A stretch of 64,000 bases of DNA from Nitrosomonas sp. (GTDB lineage: Bacteria; Pseudomonadota; Gammaproteobacteria; Burkholderiales; Nitrosomonadaceae): assembly GCF_043753625.1 (NCBI RefSeq), contig NZ_JAYUWI010000118.1, positions 4,141 to 68,140 on the forward strand, given 5' to 3'. Positions 3,547 through 37,637 of the stretch are shown piece by piece. Every line of letters begins with the position of its first letter. The first letter of the stretch is position 1. The notes under the pieces were generated by a model. The model had not been told where the DNA came from. It saw nothing but the letters and a program-made list of their open reading frames with translations, and did not search any database. The translations under genes were made by a program, and so were the position numbers.

Positions 3547-3759
3547 TTAATTTCTAACAACCAATTGAACTAATAACAAAACACAGATTACAAATACCAA
3601 GCCTCCAATAATCCCGCCTATGACAACATGAACTGGCTTCAATGTTGCAGCATCATTCTCAAGATCACTCTTTGTGCGGATTCCCATAAATGCGGCCATG
3701 ACAGCTTTAGCAATCTGCCAAATACTAACGCTACTTTGTTTTTCAGTAATCTTATTCAC
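3547..3759 (-). CDS. DUF2970-like small membrane protein (start reassigned to GTG 3759)
   Basis: KAVMAAFMGIR..DLEND..LKPVHVVIGGII pattern; GGAGG RBS directly before GTG, 10 nt after the ctaG stop. Confidence 0.8.
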   Translation of the reverse strand: MNKITEKQSSVSIWQIAKAVMAAFMGIRTKSDLENDAATLKPVHVVIGGIIGGLVFVICVLLLVQLVVRN

Positions 3760-3769
3760 TTCCTCCGCC

Positions 3770-4315
3770 TCATTTTGTAGCCACGCTTCCACTACCGGGT
3801 AATTCAAAGAAAGTATATGAAATAGTCACCGTGTTTATCTCTGGTGGCAATCCAGGTTCAATTACGAATTGCACTGGCATTTGTCTAGTCTCATATGGCT
3901 TAAGCACTTGCTTCGTAAAACAAAAACATTCAAATTTTTTCAAATGTTTATCCAGAAAACGTGGGCTGTAACTGGGTATTGCCTGCCCATTTATTTCACG
4001 GTCTGAATTATTAGTAATTTCGTACATCACACTGATTGCCTCACCTGGATGAATACGAGCGCTGGATTGCAGTGGTCTAAATTGCCAAGGCAATCCTCGT
4101 GTGTTGGCATCAAATTCAACTGTAATCCAACGCGCTTCATCCACCCAGTTTTCTTTAATCAGAACATCCGGTTTTAGCAGATTATTAATTCCAGTTACTT
4201 CGCAAAATTTCTCATAAAATGGCACAAGCGCATAACCAAAAGCAAACATAATTAATGTGAAAACCAATAACTTTTTCAACATTGCTACATTGGCTTTTAG
4301 TAGGCTAGTTACCAT
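3770..4315 (-). CDS. ctaG: Cytochrome c oxidase assembly protein CtaG/Cox11
   Basis: YEKFCEVTGIN and copper-binding KFECFCF motifs. Confidence 0.94.
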   Translation of the reverse strand: MVTSLLKANVAMLKKLLVFTLIMFAFGYALVPFYEKFCEVTGINNLLKPDVLIKENWVDEARWITVEFDANTRGLPWQFRPLQSSARIHPGEAISVMYEITNNSDREINGQAIPSYSPRFLDKHLKKFECFCFTKQVLKPYETRQMPVQFVIEPGLPPEINTVTISYTFFELPGSGSVATK

Positions 4316-4416
4316 TGTTTGAAAATAACCGTTAAATAAATTGCTACCACCATAATCAACAGAAAAATGGCTGTTATTTTAGCCTTCTTGTGCTTAATTT
4401 CCGTTTCTTGTGACAT
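4309..4416 (-). CDS. 35-aa single-TM protein between coxA and ctaG (not in the ORF track)
   Basis: MSQETEIKHKKAKITAIFLLIMVVAIYLTVIFKQW*; fills the coxA-ctaG gap and its stop overlaps the ctaG ATG (CAATGGTAA). Confidence 0.7.
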   Translation of the reverse strand: MSQETEIKHKKAKITAIFLLIMVVAIYLTVIFKQW

Positions 4417-4433
4417 ACATTTCTCGCCTGCCT

Positions 4434-6020
4434 TTATTTAATAACTGGTGGTGTTTCAAAGGTATGGTATGGCGCTGGTGATGGTAAATGCGTCCATTCC
4501 AATGTTGTTGCACCATCCCATGGCATCTGCGAGGCTTTTTCACCCTTACGTATACAATCAATCACGAGGTAAAGGAAAAGAAGCTGCGTTAGTCCAAATC
4601 CAAAGGCACCGAGACTAGAAATCATATTAAAATCTGCGAATTGTAGATTGTAATCCGGGACTCTACGCGGCATACCAGCCAATCCTAAGAAATGCTGAAC
4701 AAAGAATGTCATGTTAAAGAAAAACATCGATAGCCAGAAATGCCATTTGCCGAGCGTTTCACTGTACATATGGCCGGTCCATTTTGGAATCCAATAATAT
4801 ACCCCAGCAAATAAGGCAAATAAGGCACCTGACACGAGAACATAGTGGAAATGGGCAATTACATAGTATGTATCCTGTACTTGAATATCAATAGGAACAA
4901 TTGCGCAAATCACACCACTAAAACCACCGATTACAAACAAGAAAATAAACCCGATTGAAAATAACATCGGTGTTTCAAATGTCATTGAACCGCGCCACAT
5001 CGTGGCTGTCCAGTTAAACACTTTAACCGCTGTTGGCACAGCAATCAACATTGTCGCGTACATAAAGAATAGCTGACCAACTGCTGGCATCCCTGCTGTA
5101 AACATATGATGCGCCCATACAACACAAGATAAAATCGCGATTGATGCCGTAGCATAAACCATTGATGAATAACCAAATAATGGCTTTCTTGAAAAAGTTG
5201 GAATTATTTCAGAAACAATACCAAAAGCTGGCAAAATCATGATATAAACTTCTGGGTGCCCAAAAAACCAGAAAATATGCTGAAACAGTACTGGGTCACC
5301 CCCGCCAGCTGCATTGAAGAAGCTTGTACCAAAATGACGATCTGTCAACAACATAGTTACGACACCAGCCAAAACCGGCATCACCAAAACCAGCAAATAG
5401 GCAGTGATCAACCATGTCCATACAAACATTGGCATCTTCATCAATGTCATCCCTGGTGCACGCATATTTAAAATGGTCGTAATGATATTAATTGAGCCCA
5501 TAATTGAGGAAGCACCCAATACATGAACTGAAAAAATCATTAGATCCACACCCAGACCACCTTGGGTTGAAAGTGGTGGATAAAATGTCCAACCACCTGC
5601 TGCTGCACCACCCGGTACAAAAAATGAACCAATCAACATAGTAGCCGCCACTGGCAGCAACCAGAAACTCCAGTTATTCATCCGAGCAAAAGCCATATCC
5701 GGCGCACCAATCATCATCGGCACTTGCCAGTTAGCAAAACCCACGAAAGCCGGCATAATGGCACCAAACACCATTATCAACCCATGCAATGTCGTAAATT
5801 GATTGAATAACTCAGGCTCTAAAATTTGTATGCCGGGCTGATATAGCTCCGCGCGAATCCCCATGGCCAAAAAGCCACCCACCATAAACATAGTAAAACT
5901 AAACCAAAGATACATCGTACCAATGTCTTTATGATTAGTCGTTTTAACCCAACGCATAATACCGCTGGGATGATGATCATCATGTTCGTGACCATGCTCG
6001 TCACCGTGTACTGCTGCCAT
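4434..6020 (-). CDS. coxA: Cytochrome c oxidase subunit I (A-family heme-copper oxidase)
   Basis: TTNHKDIG, WFFGHPEVYI, WAHHM and AHFHY ligand motifs. Confidence 0.97.
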   Translation of the reverse strand: MAAVHGDEHGHEHDDHHPSGIMRWVKTTNHKDIGTMYLWFSFTMFMVGGFLAMGIRAELYQPGIQILEPELFNQFTTLHGLIMVFGAIMPAFVGFANWQVPMMIGAPDMAFARMNNWSFWLLPVAATMLIGSFFVPGGAAAGGWTFYPPLSTQGGLGVDLMIFSVHVLGASSIMGSINIITTILNMRAPGMTLMKMPMFVWTWLITAYLLVLVMPVLAGVVTMLLTDRHFGTSFFNAAGGGDPVLFQHIFWFFGHPEVYIMILPAFGIVSEIIPTFSRKPLFGYSSMVYATASIAILSCVVWAHHMFTAGMPAVGQLFFMYATMLIAVPTAVKVFNWTATMWRGSMTFETPMLFSIGFIFLFVIGGFSGVICAIVPIDIQVQDTYYVIAHFHYVLVSGALFALFAGVYYWIPKWTGHMYSETLGKWHFWLSMFFFNMTFFVQHFLGLAGMPRRVPDYNLQFADFNMISSLGAFGFGLTQLLFLYLVIDCIRKGEKASQMPWDGATTLEWTHLPSPAPYHTFETPPVIK

Positions 6021-6032
6021 AGTTATCTCCTT

Positions 6033-6854
6033 TTACTTATTTTCGATATGCATTGATGTCTTGATTGTAGCTGATTTTGTTTGCTCAGCTACCCATTGCG
6101 CATAATCATTTGCCGCCATCACCTCAACCACAATCGGCATATATCCATGATCTTTGCCACACAATTCAGAACACTGTCCACGATAAATTCCTGGATTATC
6201 TGCTGTAAACCATGTATCCCGAATAAAGCCTGGGATAGCGTCCTGCTTAACACCCAACGCCGGTACAGACCAAGCATGAAGCACATCATTTGCCGTAATA
6301 ATAACGCGCACCTTTTTACCTACCGGCACAACGACACGATTATCTACTTCTAATAAATAATTCTCACCTTTTGGTTCTTTATTCTCGATCTGAGCTCGTG
6401 GTGTAGATAATTTACTATAAAAACTAATCCCTTCACCTTCGCCCTGCAAATAATCATACCCCCACATCCACTGATAACCTGTTGCCTTGATGGTTATATC
6501 AGGACCTGATGTGTCCTTCATTGCAATAATCGTTTTAGTTGCAGGTAATGCCATAACCACAAGAATAATACAAGGTATTATTGTCCAGACTACTTCTACT
6601 GTTGTGCTGTGATGAAAATTTGCCGCTTTGTGTCCCACAGACTTGCGATGCTTTAGTATGGAATAAAACATGACACCAAACACTGCAATAAAAATAGCCA
6701 AACATATCCACAAAAGCGCTATATGTTGGTCATAAGTTTCTCTTGCAATTATGCTCTGCGGTTCTGGAAAATTATATTTAGATCCAACCGCCAAGCTAGA
6801 ATACAAAGCGAGAGTGGATACCCCCGCTAGGGTTGCTACTAATTTACTTCTCAT
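6033..6854 (-). CDS. coxB: Cytochrome c oxidase subunit II (start reassigned to ATG 6854)
   Basis: DVLHAW and the CuA motif CSELCGKDHGYM; G-rich RBS before MRSKL. Confidence 0.96.
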   Translation of the reverse strand: MRSKLVATLAGVSTLALYSSLAVGSKYNFPEPQSIIARETYDQHIALLWICLAIFIAVFGVMFYSILKHRKSVGHKAANFHHSTTVEVVWTIIPCIILVVMALPATKTIIAMKDTSGPDITIKATGYQWMWGYDYLQGEGEGISFYSKLSTPRAQIENKEPKGENYLLEVDNRVVVPVGKKVRVIITANDVLHAWSVPALGVKQDAIPGFIRDTWFTADNPGIYRGQCSELCGKDHGYMPIVVEVMAANDYAQWVAEQTKSATIKTSMHIENK

Positions 6855-7466
6855 ACTCCCACCCCCCACATGATTACTAATTACACAGATTTCAGGTACG
6901 ACTACGACCGCCACACCTGAACGTCTTACCTTTGTTTAGCCAGCTTACGAAAGTCATTCGCCAAAATCCTATTTTGTTAAAACCATACCATTATTGACGA
7001 TAGTTACATTTCCATGGCCGAATTTCCATATTATCCGCAACTTAGATTTTCTTAGTTATAGAATCTTCTACATGCTAATTAATCGAATGGAAATTCTAGC
7101 ACGCCACCGCTGCCCTAACAAGGAAAAATCATGATTTCTATAGCAATATCCCCCTGCTTATAAAATGGTATTTTTGTTTTAGCACGCCTAAATAGCATTG
7201 TTGGGATACAGAATTCACCTCTTACTTTCTTCAGTGGATTTCGACATTCTCAGCTAAGTATAACTTTCACGTTTCAGCATCAAGTTTGACCTCTCGCTGA
7301 AAGTTCACCACTGCAGTCATTTAAGGTATACAGACATACTTAATATTCCAAACTGCAAAGCGACTTATTTAATGTGTATGATGCTCATTGAACATTAAAT
7401 CTAACTGAGATGAGTCTACTAAAAATAAATTTTCTCTTAGATGCTTATCAGCGCAGAAAATCTGCA

Positions 7467-7646
7467 TCACACTAATTTAACCAAAAGCATAATAAATAAA
7501 AAAACAACAACGACGGGAATAACAAAACTCATCCAATCCGCCGATGTGCTCTTTGAGCTATTCCTCATCATATCCCGGGTAGCTGGTAACAGGATAATAA
7601 TAAACATCACTAGCGCCAAAGCAGAAACAATTTCCATCCAGTCCAT
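7467..7646 (-). CDS. 59-aa two-TM small membrane protein (below the ORF-track cutoff)
   Basis: MDWMEIVSALALVMFIIILLPATRDMMRNSSKSTSADWMSFVIPVVVVFLFIMLLVKLV*; preceded by AGGAAGAGGG. The + strand track ORF 7441-7662 is its shadow. Confidence 0.75.
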   Translation of the reverse strand: MDWMEIVSALALVMFIIILLPATRDMMRNSSKSTSADWMSFVIPVVVVFLFIMLLVKLV

Positions 7647-7695
7647 ATCGCCCTCTTCCTGAATGTCTTCTTCTACAAAACCCTTTTGTCCAAAA

Positions 7696-7722
7696 CAAAA
7701 CCCCGGTTTAACCGGGGTTTTG
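7696..7722. terminator. Intrinsic terminator after yccA
   Basis: CAAAACCCCGGTT-T-AACCGGGGTTTTG perfect stem with A/T tails. Confidence 0.8.
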
Positions 7723-7746
7723 AGTATTCATTCCTTTCACCGGAAA

Positions 7747-8418
7747 TTAATCGTCATTTCCCATAATACCCAATATTTGTAGCAAGCTAATGAAAATATT
7801 GAATATCGTCATGTACAAGCCAATGGTTGCCAACACATAGTTAGTTTCACCACCGTGAATAATGCGACTGGTGTCATACAAGATAAAACCGCTCATAATC
7901 ATGATGACTAAAGCTGATATCATCAATGACATGGCTGGTATCTGCAGGAATATATTTGCTAGTGCTGCCAATAGCACCAAAAGAAACCCCACCATTAAAA
8001 AGCCACCCAGAAAACTGAAGTCTTTTCGTGTAGCCAGTGCATATGCTGACAATCCCATAAATATGACCCCTGTGCCCCCTAACGACAACGTAATGATATT
8101 TCCACCATTAGGCAATGAAGCATACATACTTAGTATTGGTCCCAATCCAAATCCCAGCATCCCTGTAATGAGAAAAACAATTCCTATACCGGCTGATGAG
8201 TTAGCAAAACGAGGTAGAACAAACATGGCGATCACCATACCGCCAATAACAGAGATCATATAAGTCATCGGTGGCATATTCATGAACATTGAAAGTGCAG
8301 CAGTGAGGCCGCTGAACAATAATGTCAGGGATAAAAGCATATATGTACTGCGTAACACTTTGTTTGTCGCAATAGCCGACGATGATCTTTGAGCAACTGT
8401 TGAGTAATTTTGATCCAT
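7747..8418 (-). CDS. yccA: Bax inhibitor-1/YccA family membrane protein
   Basis: NKVLRSTYMLL, TRKDFSFLGGFL and GFILYDTSRIIHGGETNY; seven hydrophobic segments. Confidence 0.9.
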   Translation of the reverse strand: MDQNYSTVAQRSSSAIATNKVLRSTYMLLSLTLLFSGLTAALSMFMNMPPMTYMISVIGGMVIAMFVLPRFANSSAGIGIVFLITGMLGFGLGPILSMYASLPNGGNIITLSLGGTGVIFMGLSAYALATRKDFSFLGGFLMVGFLLVLLAALANIFLQIPAMSLMISALVIMIMSGFILYDTSRIIHGGETNYVLATIGLYMTIFNIFISLLQILGIMGNDD

Positions 8419-8536
8419 AATAAAATGCCTCCACTATAAAATTAATACAAGACTATTCTAACGACAAATAAGACTATAATAACGCAGATATAGTTCAAGG
8501 CATAATACCATGAATTATACTGATCTATTAATTACC

Positions 8537-8977
8537 CTATACTTTGGTAACTTTTGCTAATGTAAAGTTATAAACAAGAAAGAACCCACCTCGTTCTAAC
8601 AAAGTGATATTCATATTTACTGACCCCGCATCAAATTTTGCAATGCCTGAATAATTGATGCGCTTCTCACCCACAAGTGAAAATGCACTGGCTGTGCGCG
8701 AAAAATTAAGCTCTTCAATAGACTGAAATCGGCCAAAATCACGATATAGATTCATCAATTTATCCAGCTGTTCGTCACTCACTGTTTGCTTAGCTTCTGG
8801 TGCCAAATGAGTCAGCAGCACTTGCTTATCCCAGCCAGATATTTCAGTCAGTATCCTGGCAACAGCAGGTTCTGCACTCTTACTGTAATAATCTTTTTCT
8901 CGATTGGTATAAAAATACAGGATAACGACCAATGTAAGTAATACAGCTATGATGATGCGTAATGTTTGAATTTGCAT
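8537..8977 (-). CDS. Hypothetical membrane-anchored protein (possible NTF2-like/DUF3887-like fold)
   Basis: Long ORF with an N-terminal TM anchor; ATG 8977 is preferred because it avoids overlap with ruvB. Confidence 0.6.
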   Translation of the reverse strand: MQIQTLRIIIAVLLTLVVILYFYTNREKDYYSKSAEPAVARILTEISGWDKQVLLTHLAPEAKQTVSDEQLDKLMNLYRDFGRFQSIEELNFSRTASAFSLVGEKRINYSGIAKFDAGSVNMNITLLERGGFFLVYNFTLAKVTKV

Positions 8978-9002
8978 AAGTCGTGAACGATAAGATGATT
9001 GA

Positions 9003-10049
9003 TTATAAGTTATTCTCTTCCCAGAAAGCGCCATTTAACCCATTTCTCGGCAAAGCGATGCCAAAATGCTGATAGGTCGCTGTTGTTGCCATACGCCCCC
9101 TTGGCGTACGCTTCAAGAATCCTTGCTGAATCAAATAAGGTTCTAGCACATCTTCAATTGTGTCACGTTCTTCACTAATTGCCGCTGCGAGATTATCCAC
9201 ACCAACTGGCCCCCCACTAAATTTTTCTATTACAGCCAACAACAACTTTCGATCCATGATATCCAACCCGATTGCATCCACATCCAACATGCTTAAAGCT
9301 GCATCGGCTACTGCATGAGTCACATGCCCATCAGCTTTAACTTCAGCAAAATCACGCACACGACGCAGTAATCGATTAACAATCCGTGGCGTACCGCGCG
9401 AGCGACGCGCAATTTCAAATGCACCGTCGGGTGATATTTCCACTTTCAATAGCCCAGCAGATCGGATGACAATTTTGCAAAGCTCTTCCGGCGTGTAAAA
9501 TTCCAATCGCGAAACAATACCGAAACGATCGCGCAATGGGTTAGTAAGCATACCTGCGCGTGTAGTAGCGCCGACCAGAGTAAATGCGGGCAAATCCAAT
9601 TTCACAGAACGTGCAGCTGGTCCCTCACCAATCATAATATCAAGTTGGTAATCTTCCAGCGCCGGATAAAGTATCTCCTCGACCATCGGAGACAGGCGAT
9701 GTATTTCATCAATAAATAAAACATCATTAGGTTCCAGGTTTGTGAGCAAAGCTGCCAGGTCACCCGGACGTTCTAAAACCGGACCAGATGTTTGGCGCAA
9801 ATTAACACCCATTTCTCTGGCAATGATATGTGCAAGTGTAGTTTTACCTAAACCTGGCGGACCGAATAACAAAACATGATCAAGCGCTTCATGGCGATTT
9901 CTTGCTGCTTCAATGAATATCTGCAGTTGCCCACGAATCTTTTCCTGACCGACATATTCTTCCAGTTGTTTTGGGCGTAGCGCCCGTTCCAGAATTTCTT
10001 CCTGGGATGATGCAGGTGCTGCGGCAACAAGTCGATCTGTTTCAATCAT
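9003..10049 (-). CDS. ruvB: Holliday junction branch migration ATPase RuvB
   Basis: [12 protein letters not shown], Walker [17 protein letters not shown] and SRGTPR. Confidence 0.98.
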
Positions 10050-29070: not shown

Positions 29071-29439
29071 ATGGATATTATTTTTCTGCACGACTTCAAA
29101 GCCAAAACCTTAATCGGCATTTACCCGTGGGAACGCGTGGTTCCGCAAACGATTCAATTGGACCTGGAAATCGCATTGCCAACCAGCCGTGCATGCCAAT
29201 CCGACAACATAGCAGATGCTTTGGACTATGCGTTGATCATAGAAAGAATTAACGAGATTTTGGCCAACAAACACTTTTCCCTGTTGGAAGCCTTGGCCGA
29301 ACATATCGCGCAAACCATTTTGACAGAATTTAAATCGCCGTGGGTTAAGATCAGCGTTGCGAAGCTGGGAATTATTCGTGGAGTAAAGAAACTGGGGGTA
29401 TGTATTGAGCGGAGTGCTGATGTCGCATCAGCGCAATAA
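29071..29439 (+). CDS. folB: Dihydroneopterin aldolase
   Basis: IGIYPWE, ALDY, LLEALAE and VGVCIER-type C-terminus; divergent from plsY as usual. Confidence 0.94.
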   Translation: MDIIFLHDFKAKTLIGIYPWERVVPQTIQLDLEIALPTSRACQSDNIADALDYALIIERINEILANKHFSLLEALAEHIAQTILTEFKSPWVKISVAKLGIIRGVKKLGVCIERSADVASAQ

Positions 29440-29649
29440 AAACATAATTTGTACTGGCTCAAACTTGATCTGACAGTTTTAAAAATTAACCTGGATTGAA
29501 TCTGATCTTTTACTGAGGCGAACCAAAAAAACCCGATGACATCTGGCACTCCAGCCATCCACCTTTTGATCTCATTGCTGCCACTTAGACTTCAGTTCTG
29601 ATCGTTGTCTTCGCCTGGTGGCAGACAGTCTCGGATGTCGCACGACTCT

Positions 29650-31410
29650 TTATCCTGAAATGAATTCATCGGCAGCATTTTTGATAATTCTTGAGCGTAC
29701 ATCCTTGATGTACGGAATCTTCATCAATTCGTTGCGTTTTGCTTGCACGATGGAACCTACCGTAGGAAATTTCGGCCGGACTCGGTCCTTTAGTCGGTCG
29801 CTAACTGATAAACCATCTATAGATTCCTCTAGTAGTGTACTTACAATCGAAGTGGCAATTATTTTGTTGCCGCATTCGCTACAGAATTTGGCATTCTGCG
29901 GTAGAAGAGCTGAACAAATTGAACAAGTTTCGCTCGGGAGCAAAAGTGAAGATAAATATGTCTGAATTTGGCTATCCGAGGATGAAAATTCACGATAATC
30001 CGTTACGCTTAGGCGTGAGATTGCATCTGCGGTTTTAGAAGTGTCGAAAGCCTTTTCAGTTGCCATAAGAGCTAAGTTAATCATGTATCGTGGGCCAGTA
30101 CCGCTAGCAATCTTGACTGTTCCGAGTTGCGATACCATTCCAGAATAACAAAGGATATCGAGAGCCAACTTAAGATTCGGGGACATATCCCGCTGCACTG
30201 TAAAAAACGCAGATTGATAGTTGCTTTTTGTCTTCCGATGATTCTTGGATCTGATTTCCGGGATTATGTAGCCTCTGAGCAAATCTAACCCGATACGGAT
30301 ATGAGACGCATACTTTGGCAGGCGCTTTGACAAACTCTGGTGGTATGGAATAAGTGCCTGATCAACATAACTTTGTACTGCTAGGCCAACGGTTCTTTCT
30401 GATAGGGGATTATTGCTGGCAAGCGCACTGTTCAAAATATGCAGAAGGGCTCGAGGATTCCCATTTGATAGGTCAATGCATAAGTCAAGCTCGGCACCTC
30501 TTGTAAAAATCTTCTTTCGCAGGGTACTAGTTTTTGGCAACCGCTTTTCAAGAATCGAGCGAAAATGCTCACGATTCTCGCGGCGACCAGATTCGCCAGG
30601 GTCAAATCTAACAACCGGCAACACTATTGCATCTTGACCAATCTCGAAGTTGCGTCCGTAGTTAGTCACTGTCGGATATACAGCTGCCTTACACGCTACT
30701 TTTCCACTGTGAAGCAGCTTGAAGATTTCAAAGAAAATGTTCTGTTGAGTTGAGATGAATGTGTGCGCAGCCTCGTCAAAAAAGAACAAAATCTTATTCA
30801 ATGAGAAAAGCTCAGCCACCTCCCTAATGATATTCACAAGGAAGCTGGTGTCCTGAGCCTTAGCCAGAAATTCAGTTCCAATCTGGTTGATAATATCCGT
30901 CTGACTGACTTTGCTAAAAGCGAGCTTTTGCAGCAGATGAATCTTTTCTTCCAGCATCGCTTTAGTTTCAAGTACGGACGAAATTCCAAAGACCCGTTGA
31001 TATGGGTCCGCCCCTCCACTCTTTGCAATAAGATTTAATGCCAACATCTTCTCGTGCAAGGCTTCGAGAATTTTGATATTTACCCAAATTTGGAATGCAT
31101 CCCGCTCATCAGCCTTCACCCCTTCTAGCAATGTACTGGTCTTGAAATTGACATATACACCTAGCTTCTTGTCCGTTTGAAAAGTGTTATCCAGTTCAAT
31201 TTCAGCCATTCTGAGGAGCATGGATTTACCCACTCCACGAGCACCTTCAAGGAGGTTTGCACCGCCCCCCTTCAATGCATCTATAATGCGTCGCTCAAAA
31301 TCACCAAGCACGGAAATCTGGCGGATCTGTTCGTAGAGCAAATCCTCGCACCGTACAGTCTGCAGGAGATCGTCACCAGTAATCTGAGTCTGTGTCGTCG
31401 GGGCATTCAT
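29650..31410 (-). CDS. P-loop ATPase (STAND/ORC-CDC6-like) with C-terminal double zinc ribbon and HhH/RNAP alpha-CTD-like tail
   Basis: Walker A GARGVGKS, Walker B FFFDEAAH, SNGNPR (GxP), CSIC-x10-CSEC and the tail SIDGL..ELMKIPYI. Confidence 0.8.
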   Translation of the reverse strand: MNAPTTQTQITGDDLLQTVRCEDLLYEQIRQISVLGDFERRIIDALKGGGANLLEGARGVGKSMLLRMAEIELDNTFQTDKKLGVYVNFKTSTLLEGVKADERDAFQIWVNIKILEALHEKMLALNLIAKSGGADPYQRVFGISSVLETKAMLEEKIHLLQKLAFSKVSQTDIINQIGTEFLAKAQDTSFLVNIIREVAELFSLNKILFFFDEAAHTFISTQQNIFFEIFKLLHSGKVACKAAVYPTVTNYGRNFEIGQDAIVLPVVRFDPGESGRRENREHFRSILEKRLPKTSTLRKKIFTRGAELDLCIDLSNGNPRALLHILNSALASNNPLSERTVGLAVQSYVDQALIPYHQSLSKRLPKYASHIRIGLDLLRGYIIPEIRSKNHRKTKSNYQSAFFTVQRDMSPNLKLALDILCYSGMVSQLGTVKIASGTGPRYMINLALMATEKAFDTSKTADAISRLSVTDYREFSSSDSQIQTYLSSLLLPSETCSICSALLPQNAKFCSECGNKIIATSIVSTLLEESIDGLSVSDRLKDRVRPKFPTVGSIVQAKRNELMKIPYIKDVRSRIIKNAADEFISG

Positions 31411-31415
31411 GTGCT

Positions 31416-32141
31416 TTAGATTCTCTTAATTTGCGGGAAGGCAGATTTTATAAGGAGTTCAAGACCCCGGAACCGAGCAAACAATAGCAAAATGACGATA
31501 TTTTGTGCTTCTGCTATTTGTTTCAGGTGCTTCTCTATCCCGTTTTTGTCCGGTGAAAACCTTTCCGGTGAGAGGGGGGGTAGTCCAGAAACTTTCCCAT
31601 GAACTGTGTTACTGAGCTCCCGATAGATTCTTTGAAAATCTACTTGGTTGCAGATAGGGGATACTGATTCTTCTCCCTGCAATTGCGCGATGTACTCAAG
31701 ATAGCCAACAGAGTTTAGGTGAGCGACCATAACTGAAAAACTCAAATCCTGGTCCTTATGGCTCCAGCCCCAATACTCATGCGGCAGGTCCCACATGTAA
31801 ACCGTGGCCAAACCAAGCTCAAATGCACGGCGAACTGACATCCGTGCCGGCACAATCAAACCAATCGCGCACAGGTACATCGCTAGGGAAAAATCGGTAA
31901 AAACCTCATCCAAAATCTCTTTGCAAATCCTTTTTTGCCCTTCACTTTCACAATAGTTTATAGACAAGATACCTCTTATCTCGCTAATAATTCGAGAATT
32001 GAGATCAATCGTATCTAGCAGAAGGCTTGTTTCCGCTCCTATGGAGAGAACATTCTGGTTAAATTTTGCATGAAGCGTGCAAAGGATATCTTTTACCGGT
32101 TGTCTCGGTGCGTGACTTACAGTTGTCAAATTAATTTCCAA
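31416..32141 (-). CDS. Putative HEPN-like alpha-helical protein
   Basis: N-terminal RRAFE and C-terminal YRELSNTVHG (R-x6-H); stop lies 5 nt before the ATPase start; TTG start is uncertain. Confidence 0.6.
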   Translation of the reverse strand: MEINLTTVSHAPRQPVKDILCTLHAKFNQNVLSIGAETSLLLDTIDLNSRIISEIRGILSINYCESEGQKRICKEILDEVFTDFSLAMYLCAIGLIVPARMSVRRAFELGLATVYMWDLPHEYWGWSHKDQDLSFSVMVAHLNSVGYLEYIAQLQGEESVSPICNQVDFQRIYRELSNTVHGKVSGLPPLSPERFSPDKNGIEKHLKQIAEAQNIVILLLFARFRGLELLIKSAFPQIKRI

Positions 32142-32390
32142 TCAAGGCTATACAAAAAGCACCAATCGTAATAATTATAACCTCATAGCCTAAAATGCTC
32201 ACACAAGTTTTGCCACGTTTCGGCCAAAAAGCGGACTGACAATTGCAAATAGAGCAGCTTTTAGATGACACAATTGTCGTTCGATAGTCTTCTTTCCTAT
32301 GTGTACGAGTGTCTCTTTGTAGCCGGAAGAAGGCATTTAGTTGATCCCAACTCCACAACCCCTAATTAAACTCAGGTCAATTGTAATTAC

Positions 32391-33071
32391 TCATGAGTTA
32401 ACCAGATAACGTGTTGAATCGATTGCGCCTGCCGCAGTAAATCCAGCACGCCGGATACGACAAGAATCACAAACACCACAAGCTCGTCCCAGCTCATCAG
32501 CCTGATAACAAGAAACGGTTAAACTGTAATCGACACCTAAAGCAATTCCTTCCTGGATAATCTCTTTCTTGGTCATATGCAAGAGCGGTGCATGAATGGT
32601 CAGTTTTTTGCCTTCAATGGCTGCCTTGGTTGCCAGATTCGCCATATTTTCAAAAGCCGTAATGTATTCCGGGCGGCAATCCGGGTAGCCGGAATAATCG
32701 ACTGCGTTCACACCGACGAAGGTATCTTGACTATCCAATGTTTCAGCCCATGCCAACGCCAGCGACAGCATAATGGTATTTCTGACGGGCACATAAGTGA
32801 CGGGGATATTTGTTTTCTCTCCAGAAGTTGGAATTTCAATTGAGCGGTCTGTGAGCGCTGATCCACCGAATGTTGTCAGATCGAGTTTGATAACTTGGTG
32901 GACGTAAGAACCTAAAGCTTGAGCGACTTTCCGTGCTGCTTCTAATTCTGATCGATGCCGCTGGCCATAATCGACACTCAAGGTATAACACTCGAATTGC
33001 CTGTTCCGGGCTATCGCCAGTGCGGTTGCAGAATCTAATCCGCCGGATAGTAATACCACTGCTTTTTTCAT
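32391..33071 (-). CDS. queC: 7-cyano-7-deazaguanine synthase
   Basis: [20 protein letters not shown] and C-x8-CGVCDSC zinc motif. Confidence 0.97.
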
Positions 33072-33093
33072 GCGCTGATCAACTTTACAAACT

Positions 33094-33750
33094 TCAACGT
33101 CCCGGCCCCTCTCCCCACAGCAGCTTATGCATCTGAATCTGCATCCTTACCGGCAAGCTGTCGCGCAATATCCAGGCTGCCAGTGTCGCGGGATCCAAGC
33201 TGCCATAAACGGGTGAAAGCAAGATTGGACATATTTGCTGTAACTGCCTGGTATGAATGATTTCGCAAGCCCATTGATAGTCTGTCTCATCGCACAGCAC
33301 GAATTTGATTTCGTCATGTTGTTTCAGATGAACAAGATTGGACCAATTATTTTTAGTTACTTCACCCGAACCCGGGGTTTTGATATCCATAACTTTGCAC
33401 ACACGCACATCTACTCTGGATAAATCCAATGCGCCGCTGGTTTCAAGTGATACGGAATACTGTGCATCGCATAATGTAGTTAACAAATCCAAACAAGCTT
33501 TCTGCGCTAAAGGCTCGCCTCCGGTCACGGTTACATAATTCGTTTGATAGCGAGCCACCTGGTTCAGTATTTCTGCTATCGATAGATTCTCACCACCGGT
33601 AAAAGCATAGGCAGTATCACAGTAACCGCAGCGCAAAGGGCAACCCGTCAAACGCACAAAAACCGTTGGCAAACCGACTCGACTGGTTTCACCTTGTAAC
33701 GAATAGAAAATTTCACTGATACGCAAGGTTGTTGTCTCTAACGCTTGCAT
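33094..33750 (-). CDS. queE: 7-carboxy-7-deazaguanine synthase (radical SAM)
   Basis: [23 protein letters not shown] and QMHK. Confidence 0.96.
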
Positions 33751-33848
33751 AATGATTGATCGCCTGGATGAAGAAAGAAGCAGATTATATTACTTTGAAG
33801 GTAATGCAGAAATCAACAATTGGCAGACTATTTGTTCAAGCAAGGAGT

Positions 33849-34739
33849 TTATTTGATGTTAGCCAAGCGTTGCTTGGCTTTTTTTGCGGCGTCACTATTC
33901 GGGTATTTTGCCAGCAAATTTTCTAACGTATGTTTACTCGCCTTGCTATCGCCCATTTCCTGCTGGCTGCTAGCAATATTCAGAAATGCATCCGGCACCT
34001 TGCTGCTGTCTGGGTACGTGCTAATCAATTTTTTCTGCGCATTGATTGCCAGTTGATAATCCCGCAGTGCGTAGCGCGCATTGCCAATCCAATAAGCAGC
34101 GCCAGGTGCCAAATTGGATTGTGGATAACTCCCCAGGAAGCTTTCAAATTGTGCAATAGCGTTTGCATATTCACCGTTTTTGAATAAGTCATACGCTTCT
34201 TTATAGGCGCTATTTTCTGCTGGACCGGCGGGTGCTAGTTCATTTGCTGATGCCACCGTTGCATCGGGCGCGCCGGAAGAAGCAGCAGTTCCATCGGATG
34301 ATAAAGTTTCCGGCACCACTAAACCAGCAGGCGGTGCCGCTGTCTGTTCTTTGCCCGAGGTACTATCGGAAAAGCTTGCTGGCGCTGCAGGAGCGGAAGA
34401 ACTCTTCTTACCAGGTTGTTCAATCTGGCGCAACCGATTGTCCAAATCAATATAGAAATCCCGCTGCCGCTTCTGTAATAAGGCATTGTCGTTACTCAGC
34501 ATTTCTATTTGTCCGTTCAGTTTTCCCAATTCAGCCCCAAGCGTTTCAACTTGTGCATAAAGCTGAAGTAACGCTTGGCTGTTCAGTGCCTGCTCCATCT
34601 TAGCAATACGCGCTTCCATTTCACTGACTTGCTTACGTAATGCGGTAATCTGTTCGCGTGCTTCATCATCGCCAAACAAAGCTGCATAACTAACATTGCA
34701 GCTCAGCAACAATAACAGTAAGAAAGCGCGTATCAGCAT
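33849..34739 (-). CDS. cpoB: Tol-Pal system protein CpoB/YbgF
   Basis: Signal peptide, N-terminal coiled coil and C-terminal TPRs (AYWIG, KVPDA); follows pal. Confidence 0.93.
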   Translation of the reverse strand: MLIRAFLLLLLLSCNVSYAALFGDDEAREQITALRKQVSEMEARIAKMEQALNSQALLQLYAQVETLGAELGKLNGQIEMLSNDNALLQKRQRDFYIDLDNRLRQIEQPGKKSSSAPAAPASFSDSTSGKEQTAAPPAGLVVPETLSSDGTAASSGAPDATVASANELAPAGPAENSAYKEAYDLFKNGEYANAIAQFESFLGSYPQSNLAPGAAYWIGNARYALRDYQLAINAQKKLISTYPDSSKVPDAFLNIASSQQEMGDSKASKHTLENLLAKYPNSDAAKKAKQRLANIK

Positions 34740-36632: not shown

Positions 36633-37637
36633 TCATTCACGATAATGCACCGTAATGTTCAAATTACGAAATTCATTAAATAATGCAGGATCAGGCGGTA
36701 GCGGTAATGGTTTTGACAAAAAGATTGCGCGCTCAACCGCATTATCAAACGCCGCGTGCCCGCTACTCTTGCTTAACCTGACATCGAGAATATCACCGCC
36801 TGGGAGCAGTGTAACGTTGAATTCAGCAACCGGATTACCCGGCAAATCCGGTGGCATCACGATTCTGCTCTTTATCTTGGCAAGAATCAGGGCTTTATAT
36901 TTCGATATCTCATTTGTTACCTGATTCCTTGCCGCAGCTTGTTGTGCAGCGCGTTTCGCATCGGCTTCCCGCTGTGCTTTTGCTTCCCGCTCACGTTGCT
37001 GTTGTGCGGCCAGATCTTTTTCTTTCTGTTTCTGCAGTTCCTTCTGTTTTTCCAGTTCTTTCTGCTTTTCTAGTTCTTTTTGTTTATCCAATTCCTTTTG
37101 TTTATCTAGCTCTTTCTTTTTTTCAAGTTCTTTTTGCTTCTCTATATCTTTTAATCTTTCCTGCTCTTTAATTTTTTCTTGTTCTTTTTTCTTTTGTTCT
37201 TCCAGATCCGGCTTAGTCTCTTTAATCGGCTCAGGCTTCTGCTTCAACGCGATATCGGGTTTTTTTACAGGTGGTTCCACAACTGCTTTCTGTGGCACAG
37301 GCTTGACCGGTTCAGGCTTAACCGGCTCCGGTTTGGCTGGTTCCGGTTTGGGCGGCTCTGGTTTAGTTGGCTCCGGCTCCGGCTCCGGTTTAGGTTTGAC
37401 GGGCTCTGGAACTGGTTTAGGTTGCTTTGGAGGCGGTTGAGTTTTGACTGGTTCCTGGATAGGCTTAGGTAACTCAGTCCATATATCGACAACCATGCCT
37501 TCTGGTGGATGGTCCTTCCAATCCAAACCAAAAATCATTATCGCAACGAAAATAAGATGTACCAGTAGCGCCAGTACACCAGCCAATAATATTCTAGGTT
37601 CGGAAGGGGATGAATTGCGTAAGATGCTCACACTCAT
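36633..37637 (-). CDS. tolA: TolA
   Basis: N-terminal TM with AxxxH, Pro-rich and Lys/Glu-rich stalk, TonB-C-like C-terminal domain. Confidence 0.92.
   Translation of the reverse strand: MSVSILRNSSPSEPRILLAGVLALLVHLIFVAIMIFGLDWKDHPPEGMVVDIWTELPKPIQEPVKTQPPPKQPKPVPEPVKPKPEPEPEPTKPEPPKPEPAKPEPVKPEPVKPVPQKAVVEPPVKKPDIALKQKPEPIKETKPDLEEQKKKEQEKIKEQERLKDIEKQKELEKKKELDKQKELDKQKELEKQKELEKQKELQKQKEKDLAAQQQREREAKAQREADAKRAAQQAAARNQVTNEISKYKALILAKIKSRIVMPPDLPGNPVAEFNVTLLPGGDILDVRLSKSSGHAAFDNAVERAIFLSKPLPLPPDPALFNEFRNLNITVHYRE
37018..37143 (-). repeat. Degenerate 18-bp tandem repeat in tolA (about seven EKQKEL-type units)
   Basis: EKQKEL EKKKEL DKQKEL DKQKEL EKQKEL EKQKEL QKQKEK. Confidence 0.8.

Follow-up and report, generated by a model that had tools for sequence, protein, structure and literature searches.

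A 64,000-nucleotide (nt) stretch of the genome of a Nitrosomonas sp. (assembly GCF_043753625.1, contig NZ_JAYUWI010000118.1, positions 4,141 to 68,140; hereafter the window) carries on its minus strand a pair of adjacent genes that form an autonomous two-gene module, horizontally mobile among chromosomes, plasmids, and prophages. Gene 1 (31416..32129) encodes a predicted effector, an all-α-helical protein according to an AlphaFold2 model, whose length of ~237 amino acids (aa) follows from its open reading frame (ORF) and the start codon suggested by its homologs, while gene 2 (29650..31410) encodes a 586-aa AAA+ ATPase that Pfam, Foldseek, and AlphaFold2 place in the ORC/Cdc6 clade and that bears predicted C-terminal DNA-binding modules. 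We propose that this pair, apparently undescribed and of the ATPase-plus-effector type, is a candidate system for defence against phages or other mobile elements, and we regard the defence role itself as evenly poised between right and wrong.

The pair is a conserved and mobile two-gene module

Both genes are intact minus-strand ORFs, at 31416-32141 (241 aa from a TTG codon) and 29650-31410 (586 aa), with a 5-nt spacer from the gene 1 stop to the gene 2 start (31411..31415). An earlier annotation made from the DNA letters (the sequence-only reading) had described two genes 5 nt apart on one strand between folB and queC; the ORFs and flanks bear this out, the motifs that it quoted for both proteins were all recovered at their positions, and its length for gene 2 stands. 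The 241-aa ORF that it gave for gene 1 also exists, but near-identical and related proteins are 234-237 aa long and begin with MTTVSH, which makes the TTG at 32129 the likely start and 237 aa the likely length. Homologs of matching length (88 for gene 1 and ~500 for gene 2) indicate that both are real genes rather than chance ORFs. At homologous loci the two genes overlap or are separated by 0-25 nt, a spacing consistent with a single operon, and translational coupling is possible.

Scanning one genome per species across ~185,000 species genomes, we recovered 41 loci, a distribution that is broad across phyla yet rare: Pseudomonadota, Nitrospirota, Acidobacteriota, Verrucomicrobiota, Cyanobacteria, Bacteroidota, Bacillota, and Desulfobacterota are represented, together with one archaeon. 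A gene 1 homolog lies immediately upstream of the ATPase and on the same strand at 37 of the 41 loci, spanning at least eight phyla; the remaining four are two contig edges, one frameshifted metagenome-assembled genome, and the archaeon, whose upstream ORF matches the gene 1 family by hhalign (E 2e-23). The association extends to distant plasmid ATPases (24-28% identity) of Clostridium butyricum and Planktothrix, which have a gene 1 relative upstream (E 1e-45 and 1e-27), and to all 11 IMG/VR contigs that encode the ATPase. All-versus-all clustering of ORFs from the 41 loci yielded no conserved gene beyond these two, and the flanking DNA differs from locus to locus; 75-aa ORFs that recur ahead of gene 1 were considered as a third component and rejected, as their sequences are unrelated. 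The divergence of the two proteins from their window counterparts is also strongly correlated (Pearson r = 0.91 over 42 loci), with a mean identity of 40% for gene 1 and 62% for gene 2, such that gene 1 changes about twice as fast. A homolog 85% identical to the window pair is present in Pseudomonas grimontii/alliivorans. Conservation of the gene pair in other genomes, which the sequence-only reading had proposed as a check, proved to be near-exceptionless.

Even within Nitrosomonas the pair is found at two loci, between folB and queC in the window and adjacent to a Cas1 casposase-like gene in N. ureae, where the pair is 79% and 94% identical to that of the window. In the N. ureae region (L047, CP013341.1 1996861-2010618, with genes at 1-1580, 3562-5064, 5282-7758, and 8358-9263) the pair is directly downstream of Cas1, a 500-aa protein with an N-terminal helix-turn-helix that scores 113 bits (cutoff 71.7); nearby is a 1160-aa protein that matches PolB weakly, and an insertion sequence (DDE_Tnp_1) follows the pair. 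This region looks like a casposon-like element with the pair as cargo, and the pair is thus possibly carried on a casposon. In viral contigs its neighbors match PHROGs for a repressor, a CII-like activator, an O-like replication protein, a primase, a methyltransferase, a terminase, and tail proteins, and because these are phage genes the pair is prophage cargo in at least some of these contigs; phage GenBank records yielded no protein or DNA match to it. Plasmids provide further settings. The C. butyricum megaplasmid (L044 2547-6650) has the pair directly downstream of a large serine recombinase, and in Planktothrix agardhii plasmid p2 (L042 1-11599) a form without the zinc ribbon described below is located between a PAPS-reductase-family gene (DndC/SspD-like) and a DEAD/DEAH helicase, beyond which are another ATP-binding protein and a DUF2779 gene; the latter region may represent a larger DNA-modification or defence cluster.

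Gene 2 encodes a predicted ORC/Cdc6-like ATPase

The gene 2 protein matches Pfam PF24389 (ORC-CDC6-like) across aa 45-239 at 37.8 bits, above the gathering cutoff of 27, and its homologs also carry precomputed PF24389 annotations. Its AlphaFold2 model has a predicted local distance difference test (pLDDT) score of 79.5 and contains a ~100-aa helical insertion between strands 2 and 3. The top Foldseek matches of this model are archaeal Orc1/Cdc6 structures (2qby_B, E 6.9e-6; 1w5t_C, 4.3e-5; 2v1u_A, 4.5e-5; probability 1.00); template modeling scores are kept low (0.26-0.48) by the additional insert and tail of gene 2. Later matches were to eukaryotic ORC subunits, RADAR RdrA (8hr8, 6e-4), NLRs, RFC, and TnsC, and a search of the gene 2 profile against PDB sequences gave only noise from Zn ribbons.

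We read residue conservation from 73 homologs. Walker A (GARGVGKS, aa 56-63, 31222..31245) has invariant G56, R58, G59, G61, and K62, and Walker B (FFFDE, aa 209-213, 30772..30786) has invariant F211, D212, and E213. In the lid, N318, P319, and R320 of the GNPR motif (aa 317-320, 30451..30462) are invariant, and judging from its position we take R320 to be the sensor-2 arginine, as in the 'GDAR' of Cdc6/Orc1. R268, conserved in at least 90% of homologs and located in VVRFDPGE (aa 266-273, 30592..30615) just past predicted strand 5, is a candidate arginine finger, a role suggested by position alone. Two further peptides are almost invariant across phyla, DLLQxARCEDLxY near the N-terminus (aa 14-26) and RSRIIKNAADEFISG / NAADEFISG at the extreme C-terminus (aa 572-586); both have low AlphaFold2 confidence and are candidates for partner binding or oligomerization.

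Beyond the ATPase core, the AlphaFold2 model has a strand-helix-strand-strand arrangement at aa ~400-451 (30058..30213) that we interpret as a winged helix, and Foldseek alignments to Orc1/Cdc6 span ~470 columns. This is followed by a zinc ribbon (CSIC-x10-CSEC, C496-x2-C499...C510-x2-C513, aa 496-513, 29872..29925) in which the four cysteines are invariant; Pfam DZR and Zn_Ribbon matches fall below threshold, and the ribbon is missing from the Planktothrix/Clostridium branch of the family. The C-terminus (aa 521-586, 29653..29850) is a predicted tandem helix-hairpin-helix, or (HhH)2, domain resembling the C-terminal domain of the RNA polymerase α-subunit (α-CTD), as judged from profile matches to PDB sequences: a profile of the last 73 residues matched the HhH of Hef (2.5e-4), the Thermus thermophilus α-CTD (4.5e-3), dozens more α-CTD chains, and also DisA, XPF, ligase, ComEA, and RAD51 N-terminal domains (E up to 0.1). 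A distant homolog of gene 2 matches Pfam RNA_pol_A_CTD at 2e-4, just short of threshold. An hhalign comparison of the tail with the Escherichia coli α-CTD (E 6e-5, probability 65%) is a lead only; in the same alignment, the α-CTD DNA-contact residue R265 pairs with the variable R539 of gene 2 and not with the conserved R543. In the window subfamily the second hairpin lacks the Gly-Pro, with IKD in place of IGP.

By its motifs, gene 2 is predicted to be an ATP-competent ORC-like ATPase with the winged helix, Zn ribbon, and (HhH)2 domain as putative nucleic-acid-binding modules. This agrees with much of what the sequence-only reading had proposed, namely intact Walker A, Walker B, and GNPR motifs (with core residues that we find invariant), an ORC-CDC6-like ATPase, a probable winged helix, and an HhH/α-CTD-like C-terminus. 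The zinc ribbon that it called double is present, but as a single four-cysteine ribbon. STAND, the other label that it gave the ATPase, is not the best one, because gene 2 has no repeat or sensor array and Orc1/Cdc6 proteins are the closest folds; there is no STAND Pfam match, and the NLR fold matches are weaker than those to Orc1/Cdc6. The suggestion that the tail is an α-CTD decoy has no specific support, since R265 aligns to a variable residue.

Gene 1 encodes a divergent helical protein with three invariant residues

The AlphaFold2 model of the gene 1 protein is entirely helical, with 13 helices (pLDDT 88, predicted template modeling score 0.85). No Foldseek match had an E-value under 0.1 in the PDB or under 0.02 in the viral models; the top matches were generic helical bundles (G-protein-coupled receptors, BAR domains, and designed proteins) with no HEPN structure among them. 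PDB sequence searches with two family profiles were likewise empty, and the window protein is matched by no Pfam, PADLOC, or NCBIfam model. Only 235 relatives emerged when a profile was run against 1.84 billion representative proteins, and all of these, fragments aside, are stand-alone proteins of ~200-260 aa.

Family conservation and database scans were based on 66 diverse members, which are otherwise 15-25% identical. Only R100, Y169, and H177 are invariant, with E75, E104, W122, Y143, S173, and V176 near-invariant. R100 and E104 delimit the motif RRAFE (aa 100-104 in the 237-aa numbering, 31818..31832), Y169 and H177 belong to YRELSNTVHGK (aa 169-179, 31593..31625), and E75 opens the motif E75-V-F-T-D79 (31893..31907). 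The invariance of R100, Y169, and H177 in a family this divergent makes them look like an active site rather than a binding surface.

The sequence-only reading had called gene 1 HEPN-like and pointed to an R-x6-H motif. The histidine of this motif is the invariant H177, but its arginine, R170, which is retained in at least 90% of close relatives, gives way to H, S, E, Q, or A elsewhere in the wider family, and membership among HEPN proteins is unproven because R170 is not invariant. The HEPN label itself is not upheld by Pfam, PADLOC, or NCBIfam, which give no HEPN match, or by the Foldseek matches, or by profile similarity to the Rx4H family described below, of which there is none. A conserved R...E helix is separated by 65-75 residues from a Y-R-x-L-S-x-x-V-H-G-K helix, an arrangement that a highly diverged HEPN could have, but we consider HEPN membership rather doubtful. 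Weak matches were recorded among the 66 relatives, the most frequent being to DUF5677 (PF18928), which is hit by 35 of them, always below the cutoff of 27.1 bits (best E 6.8e-5). PD-Lambda-5_A is matched weakly by three or four (E ~0.01), and isolated weak matches were found to DUF4145 (0.037), Csx1/Csm6 (0.015), pP_pnuc_1, and an Argonaute-associated nuclease model.

A sister branch of the ATPase has a different small partner

A distant branch of the ATPase family keeps the Zn ribbon and HhH tail and is encoded within a triad consisting of an N6 DNA methyltransferase, the ATPase, and a ~280-aa protein. We observed this triad on Rhizobium and Cupriavidus plasmids, in Undibacterium, and in one metagenomic genome (L043 3829-7768, L046 3718-7523, L061 2997-6846, and L062 2991-6843); the islands are flanked by integrases, and RES and FRG genes lie next to the triad. 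No Pfam domain is assigned to the family of the third protein, which has more than 240 members and shows invariant E75...R79 and R162-H-x3-H167, the latter a canonical-looking HEPN Rx4H motif; one member has a weak RiboL-PSP-HEPN match. A Limimaricola variabilis plasmid (L045 4872-7427) has the ATPase and Rx4H protein without the methyltransferase, immediately after ParD/ParE and near a HipA-domain gene. The methyltransferase triad appears to be a second unnamed candidate system with restriction-like logic.

Homology between gene 1 and the Rx4H protein was considered and rejected: hhalign of the two families gave a probability of 0.3%, and single-sequence tests were also negative. Given that the distant branch pairs with the Rx4H protein, a single ATPase chassis works with different small partners, and one of these has the look of a nuclease. 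Of the indirect arguments for gene 1 being an effector and for the family functioning in conflict systems, this partner swapping is the strongest.

A possible defence function and its alternatives

In the mechanism that we favor, the ATPase would bind DNA through its winged helix, Zn ribbon, and (HhH)2 domain, and would switch state or oligomerize in an ATP-dependent manner on an infection cue, which could be DNA that is invading or being replicated, or else a phage factor that acts on DNA. The gene 1 protein would be an effector, either restrained or switched on by the ATPase; it would probably be a nuclease that needs no metal and uses HEPN-like chemistry, and once freed or activated it would damage RNA or DNA such that the infected cell or the phage is stopped and the infection aborted. 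We put forward this particular order of events only tentatively.

Several observations weigh against a defence function and call for caution. No homology of gene 1 to nucleases or HEPN proteins is detectable by either sequence or fold, and neither protein attains any defence model in PADLOC-DB v2 (2023) or NCBIfam r20 (June 2026, including the DefensePredictor DS models). For an immune sensor the ATPase shows unusual conservation, with 60% identity between Nitrosomonas and Paenibacillus. Housekeeping genes flank the pair in the window and in many other genomes: among 137 immediate neighbor proteins from 40 genome loci we found N6/N4 methyltransferases five times, Uma2 twice, AAA_21 twice, and at least one NERD nuclease, but many of the other neighbors are housekeeping genes and the defence-island signal is therefore only modest. 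The check for defence-island enrichment suggested by the sequence-only reading thus showed only modest enrichment among chromosomal neighbors. Lastly, a DUF5677 ORF (unspecified) tested alone in Enterococcus faecalis was not among the ORFs reported to defend (PMC12632615); this bears weakly on the pair because that protein was not shown to belong to the gene 1 family.

One alternative is that the pair is a selfish addiction module, similar to toxin-antitoxin systems, with one product toxic and the other neutralizing it, that persists and spreads because its loss is harmful and for which phage defence is not the selected role. A compact unit of two tightly spaced or overlapping genes in variable contexts would fit this well, as would its presence on plasmids and prophages and the occurrence of one relative among ParDE and HipA toxin-antitoxin genes. 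However, a 586-aa multi-domain ATPase with three predicted DNA-binding modules is far more elaborate than known antitoxins, and the tie of the sister branch to a DNA methyltransferase implies restriction-like logic. The two readings also overlap, as many toxin-antitoxin-like modules defend as well, and we regard addiction as the primary role to be unlikely.

The lack of nuclease homology in gene 1, together with a rate of change about twice that of the ATPase, as is often seen in specificity subunits, raises another scenario in which gene 1 is a regulator, adaptor, or specificity subunit. The ATPase, which has ample predicted DNA-binding capacity, would then act itself, through DNA loading that blocks replication or transcription of the invader, or would recruit a host nuclease. 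Set against this are the active-site-like invariance of R100, Y169, and H177 in gene 1 and the fact that the equivalent slot in the sister branch is filled by a protein with a catalytic-looking R-H-x3-H; we consider an adaptor role for gene 1 unlikely as well.

A more elaborate form of the defence hypothesis would make gene 1 a new effector fold with R/Y/H chemistry and without a solved analog, and the ATPase a DNA-loaded ORC-like ring that guards host DNA or the transcription machinery, with the α-CTD-like tail and Zn ribbon baiting phage factors whose normal targets are RNA polymerase or DNA. The effector would be freed upon triggering, and reuse of the same chassis with a methyltransferase and an Rx4H protein would point to an unrecognized family of ORC-based immune switches. 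We view this combination of claims as quite unlikely.

It may also be postulated that the pair serves a DNA transaction of a mobile element, with the ATPase as a replication initiator, helicase loader, or transposition-target ATPase and gene 1 as an accessory. The closest folds of gene 2 are indeed replication initiators, clamp loaders, and TnsC, the viral-contig pair is near O-like initiators and primases, and the N. ureae pair adjoins Cas1 and PolB-like genes. In the window and most genomes, however, the pair stands alone between housekeeping genes, and the element that it would serve is largely not found; conservation around the pair does not extend to any integrase, transposase, helicase, or origin-like repeats. 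The viral contigs, moreover, already have initiators of their own, and no element-specific partner is conserved. We judge this explanation very unlikely.

A housekeeping role with queuosine (queC/queE) or folate (folB), or a part in a Qat- or Dpd-like 7-deazaguanine defence system, is extremely improbable despite the position of the pair directly downstream of queE-queC on the same strand and weak PADLOC DpdC matches in two gene 1 relatives (E 1.4e-3 and 0.04), as queC and queE are equivalogs of the ordinary kind (QueC reaches 197.8 bits, with an NCBIfam cutoff of 150.3, but 30.9 against a cutoff of 280 for QatC), the adjacency was observed only in this Nitrosomonas lineage (the window and L031) with N. 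ureae carrying the pair elsewhere, and no que gene is among the 25 commonest neighbor families at 40 other genome loci, so that without conserved linkage a queuosine connection is effectively excluded and Qat/Dpd membership was rejected.

If the favored reading is correct and the pair defends, it would be an undescribed system with a sensor built on the chassis of a replication initiator (ORC/Cdc6) and an effector without a solved structural relative. The unusually strong conservation of the ATPase suggests that it reads a conserved cue, and the trigger would then be tractable to find. With the sister triad, abortive and restriction-like roles of a single ATPase could be compared in a natural setting. 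For ammonia-oxidizing bacteria, whose phage biology is, to our knowledge, poorly known, the pair would represent a defence element as well.

Genomic context in the window

NCBIfam models identify the genes on one side of the pair as a FolB-domain protein, PlsY, and TsaD, and those on the other as QueC, QueE, and YbgF, followed by tol-pal genes. The GC content of the pair matches its surroundings and is not anomalous. The intergenic DNA that separates the queC stop from the gene 1 start (32130..32390, minus strand) presumably carries the promoter of the pair; no consensus sigma-70 site was found within it, and promoter and terminator consensus sites around the pair did not exceed chance. Rfam searches of 29300-33900 detected no element, and no meaningful direct or inverted repeats of the kind left as insertion scars flank the pair. 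Farther along, a TolA homolog (36633-37637) has a long Pro/Glu/Lys-rich repeat stretch, which accounts for a strong AT-skew excursion (-0.56) at 37000-37499 and is an ordinary feature of TolA.

Comparison with known systems

The sequence-only reading did not recognize the pairing as a named system, and this remains the case with the defence models listed above. The best PADLOC scores of gene 2 are E 0.0069 for PDC-S01 and 0.85 for LmuB, and in NCBIfam it reaches 28 bits for DS41_1 (cutoff 370) and 33 bits for Sll1717 (cutoff 75). Kinship with DefensePredictor DS-41 was considered and rejected, as the two are unrelated beyond the P-loop. In the literature that we searched there was no mention of PF24389, and DUF5677 appeared only in passing; the architectures reported in recent surveys of ORC/Cdc6-type ATPases from BREX, BREX-related, and Dnd/Ssp systems are different ones.

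We know of no function for DUF5677, whose members resemble gene 1 in size and in being all-helical and are matched recurrently below threshold, but no gene 1 relative reaches the Pfam cutoff and the window protein does not match at all. DUF5677 genes have been reported to be enriched next to serine recombinases in Bacillota (PMC12632615), an association echoed by the position of the C. butyricum pair after a serine recombinase. HEPN RNases (DUF4145 and the RiboL-PSP/AbiD-F type) share with gene 1 a helical fold and an R...E helix followed by an R-x6-H helix with an invariant histidine; unlike them, gene 1 has no significant sequence or fold match, and its motif arginine has been dispensable in evolution.

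For gene 2, Orc1/Cdc6 and PF24389 proteins provide the closest parallel, with a shared AAA+ core, Walker A and B motifs, a lid with the sensor-2 arginine, and a winged helix. Gene 2 differs from Orc1/Cdc6 in its helical insertion, added Zn ribbon, and (HhH)2 tail, and in being encoded in a mobile pair with a small helical protein rather than at a replication origin. The tail is similar to the α-CTD and to the (HhH)2 domains of Hef, XPF, DisA, and ComEA (profile matches of 2.5e-4 to 0.1), but unlike the α-CTD it has lost the Gly-Pro of the second hairpin and is variable at the R265 position.

Among defence systems, RADAR likewise combines a large ORC/STAND-like ATPase with a separate effector, and RdrA is among the Foldseek matches of gene 2. 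The pair nevertheless has no deaminase in the window or at related loci, its effector gene comes first, and its ATPase is smaller with other C-terminal domains; the PADLOC RdrA model does not match gene 2, and RADAR membership was rejected given that the resemblance to RdrA is at the level of fold only. Hma and type-1 BREX-related systems comprise a HEPN-DUF499 ATPase, a methyltransferase, and a helicase (PMC12839542); what we describe is similar in combining an ATPase of the ORC/Cdc6-STAND type that has winged helices with a putative RNase and, in the case of our sister branch, with an N6 methyltransferase. The window pair differs in having no methyltransferase, helicase, or PglZ, its ATPase is neither DUF499 nor BrxC, and its small partner, for which a HEPN fold is unproven, is encoded by a separate gene. 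The pair is therefore a member of neither group, and RADAR and the HEPN-DUF499 ATPases are its nearest functional analogies.

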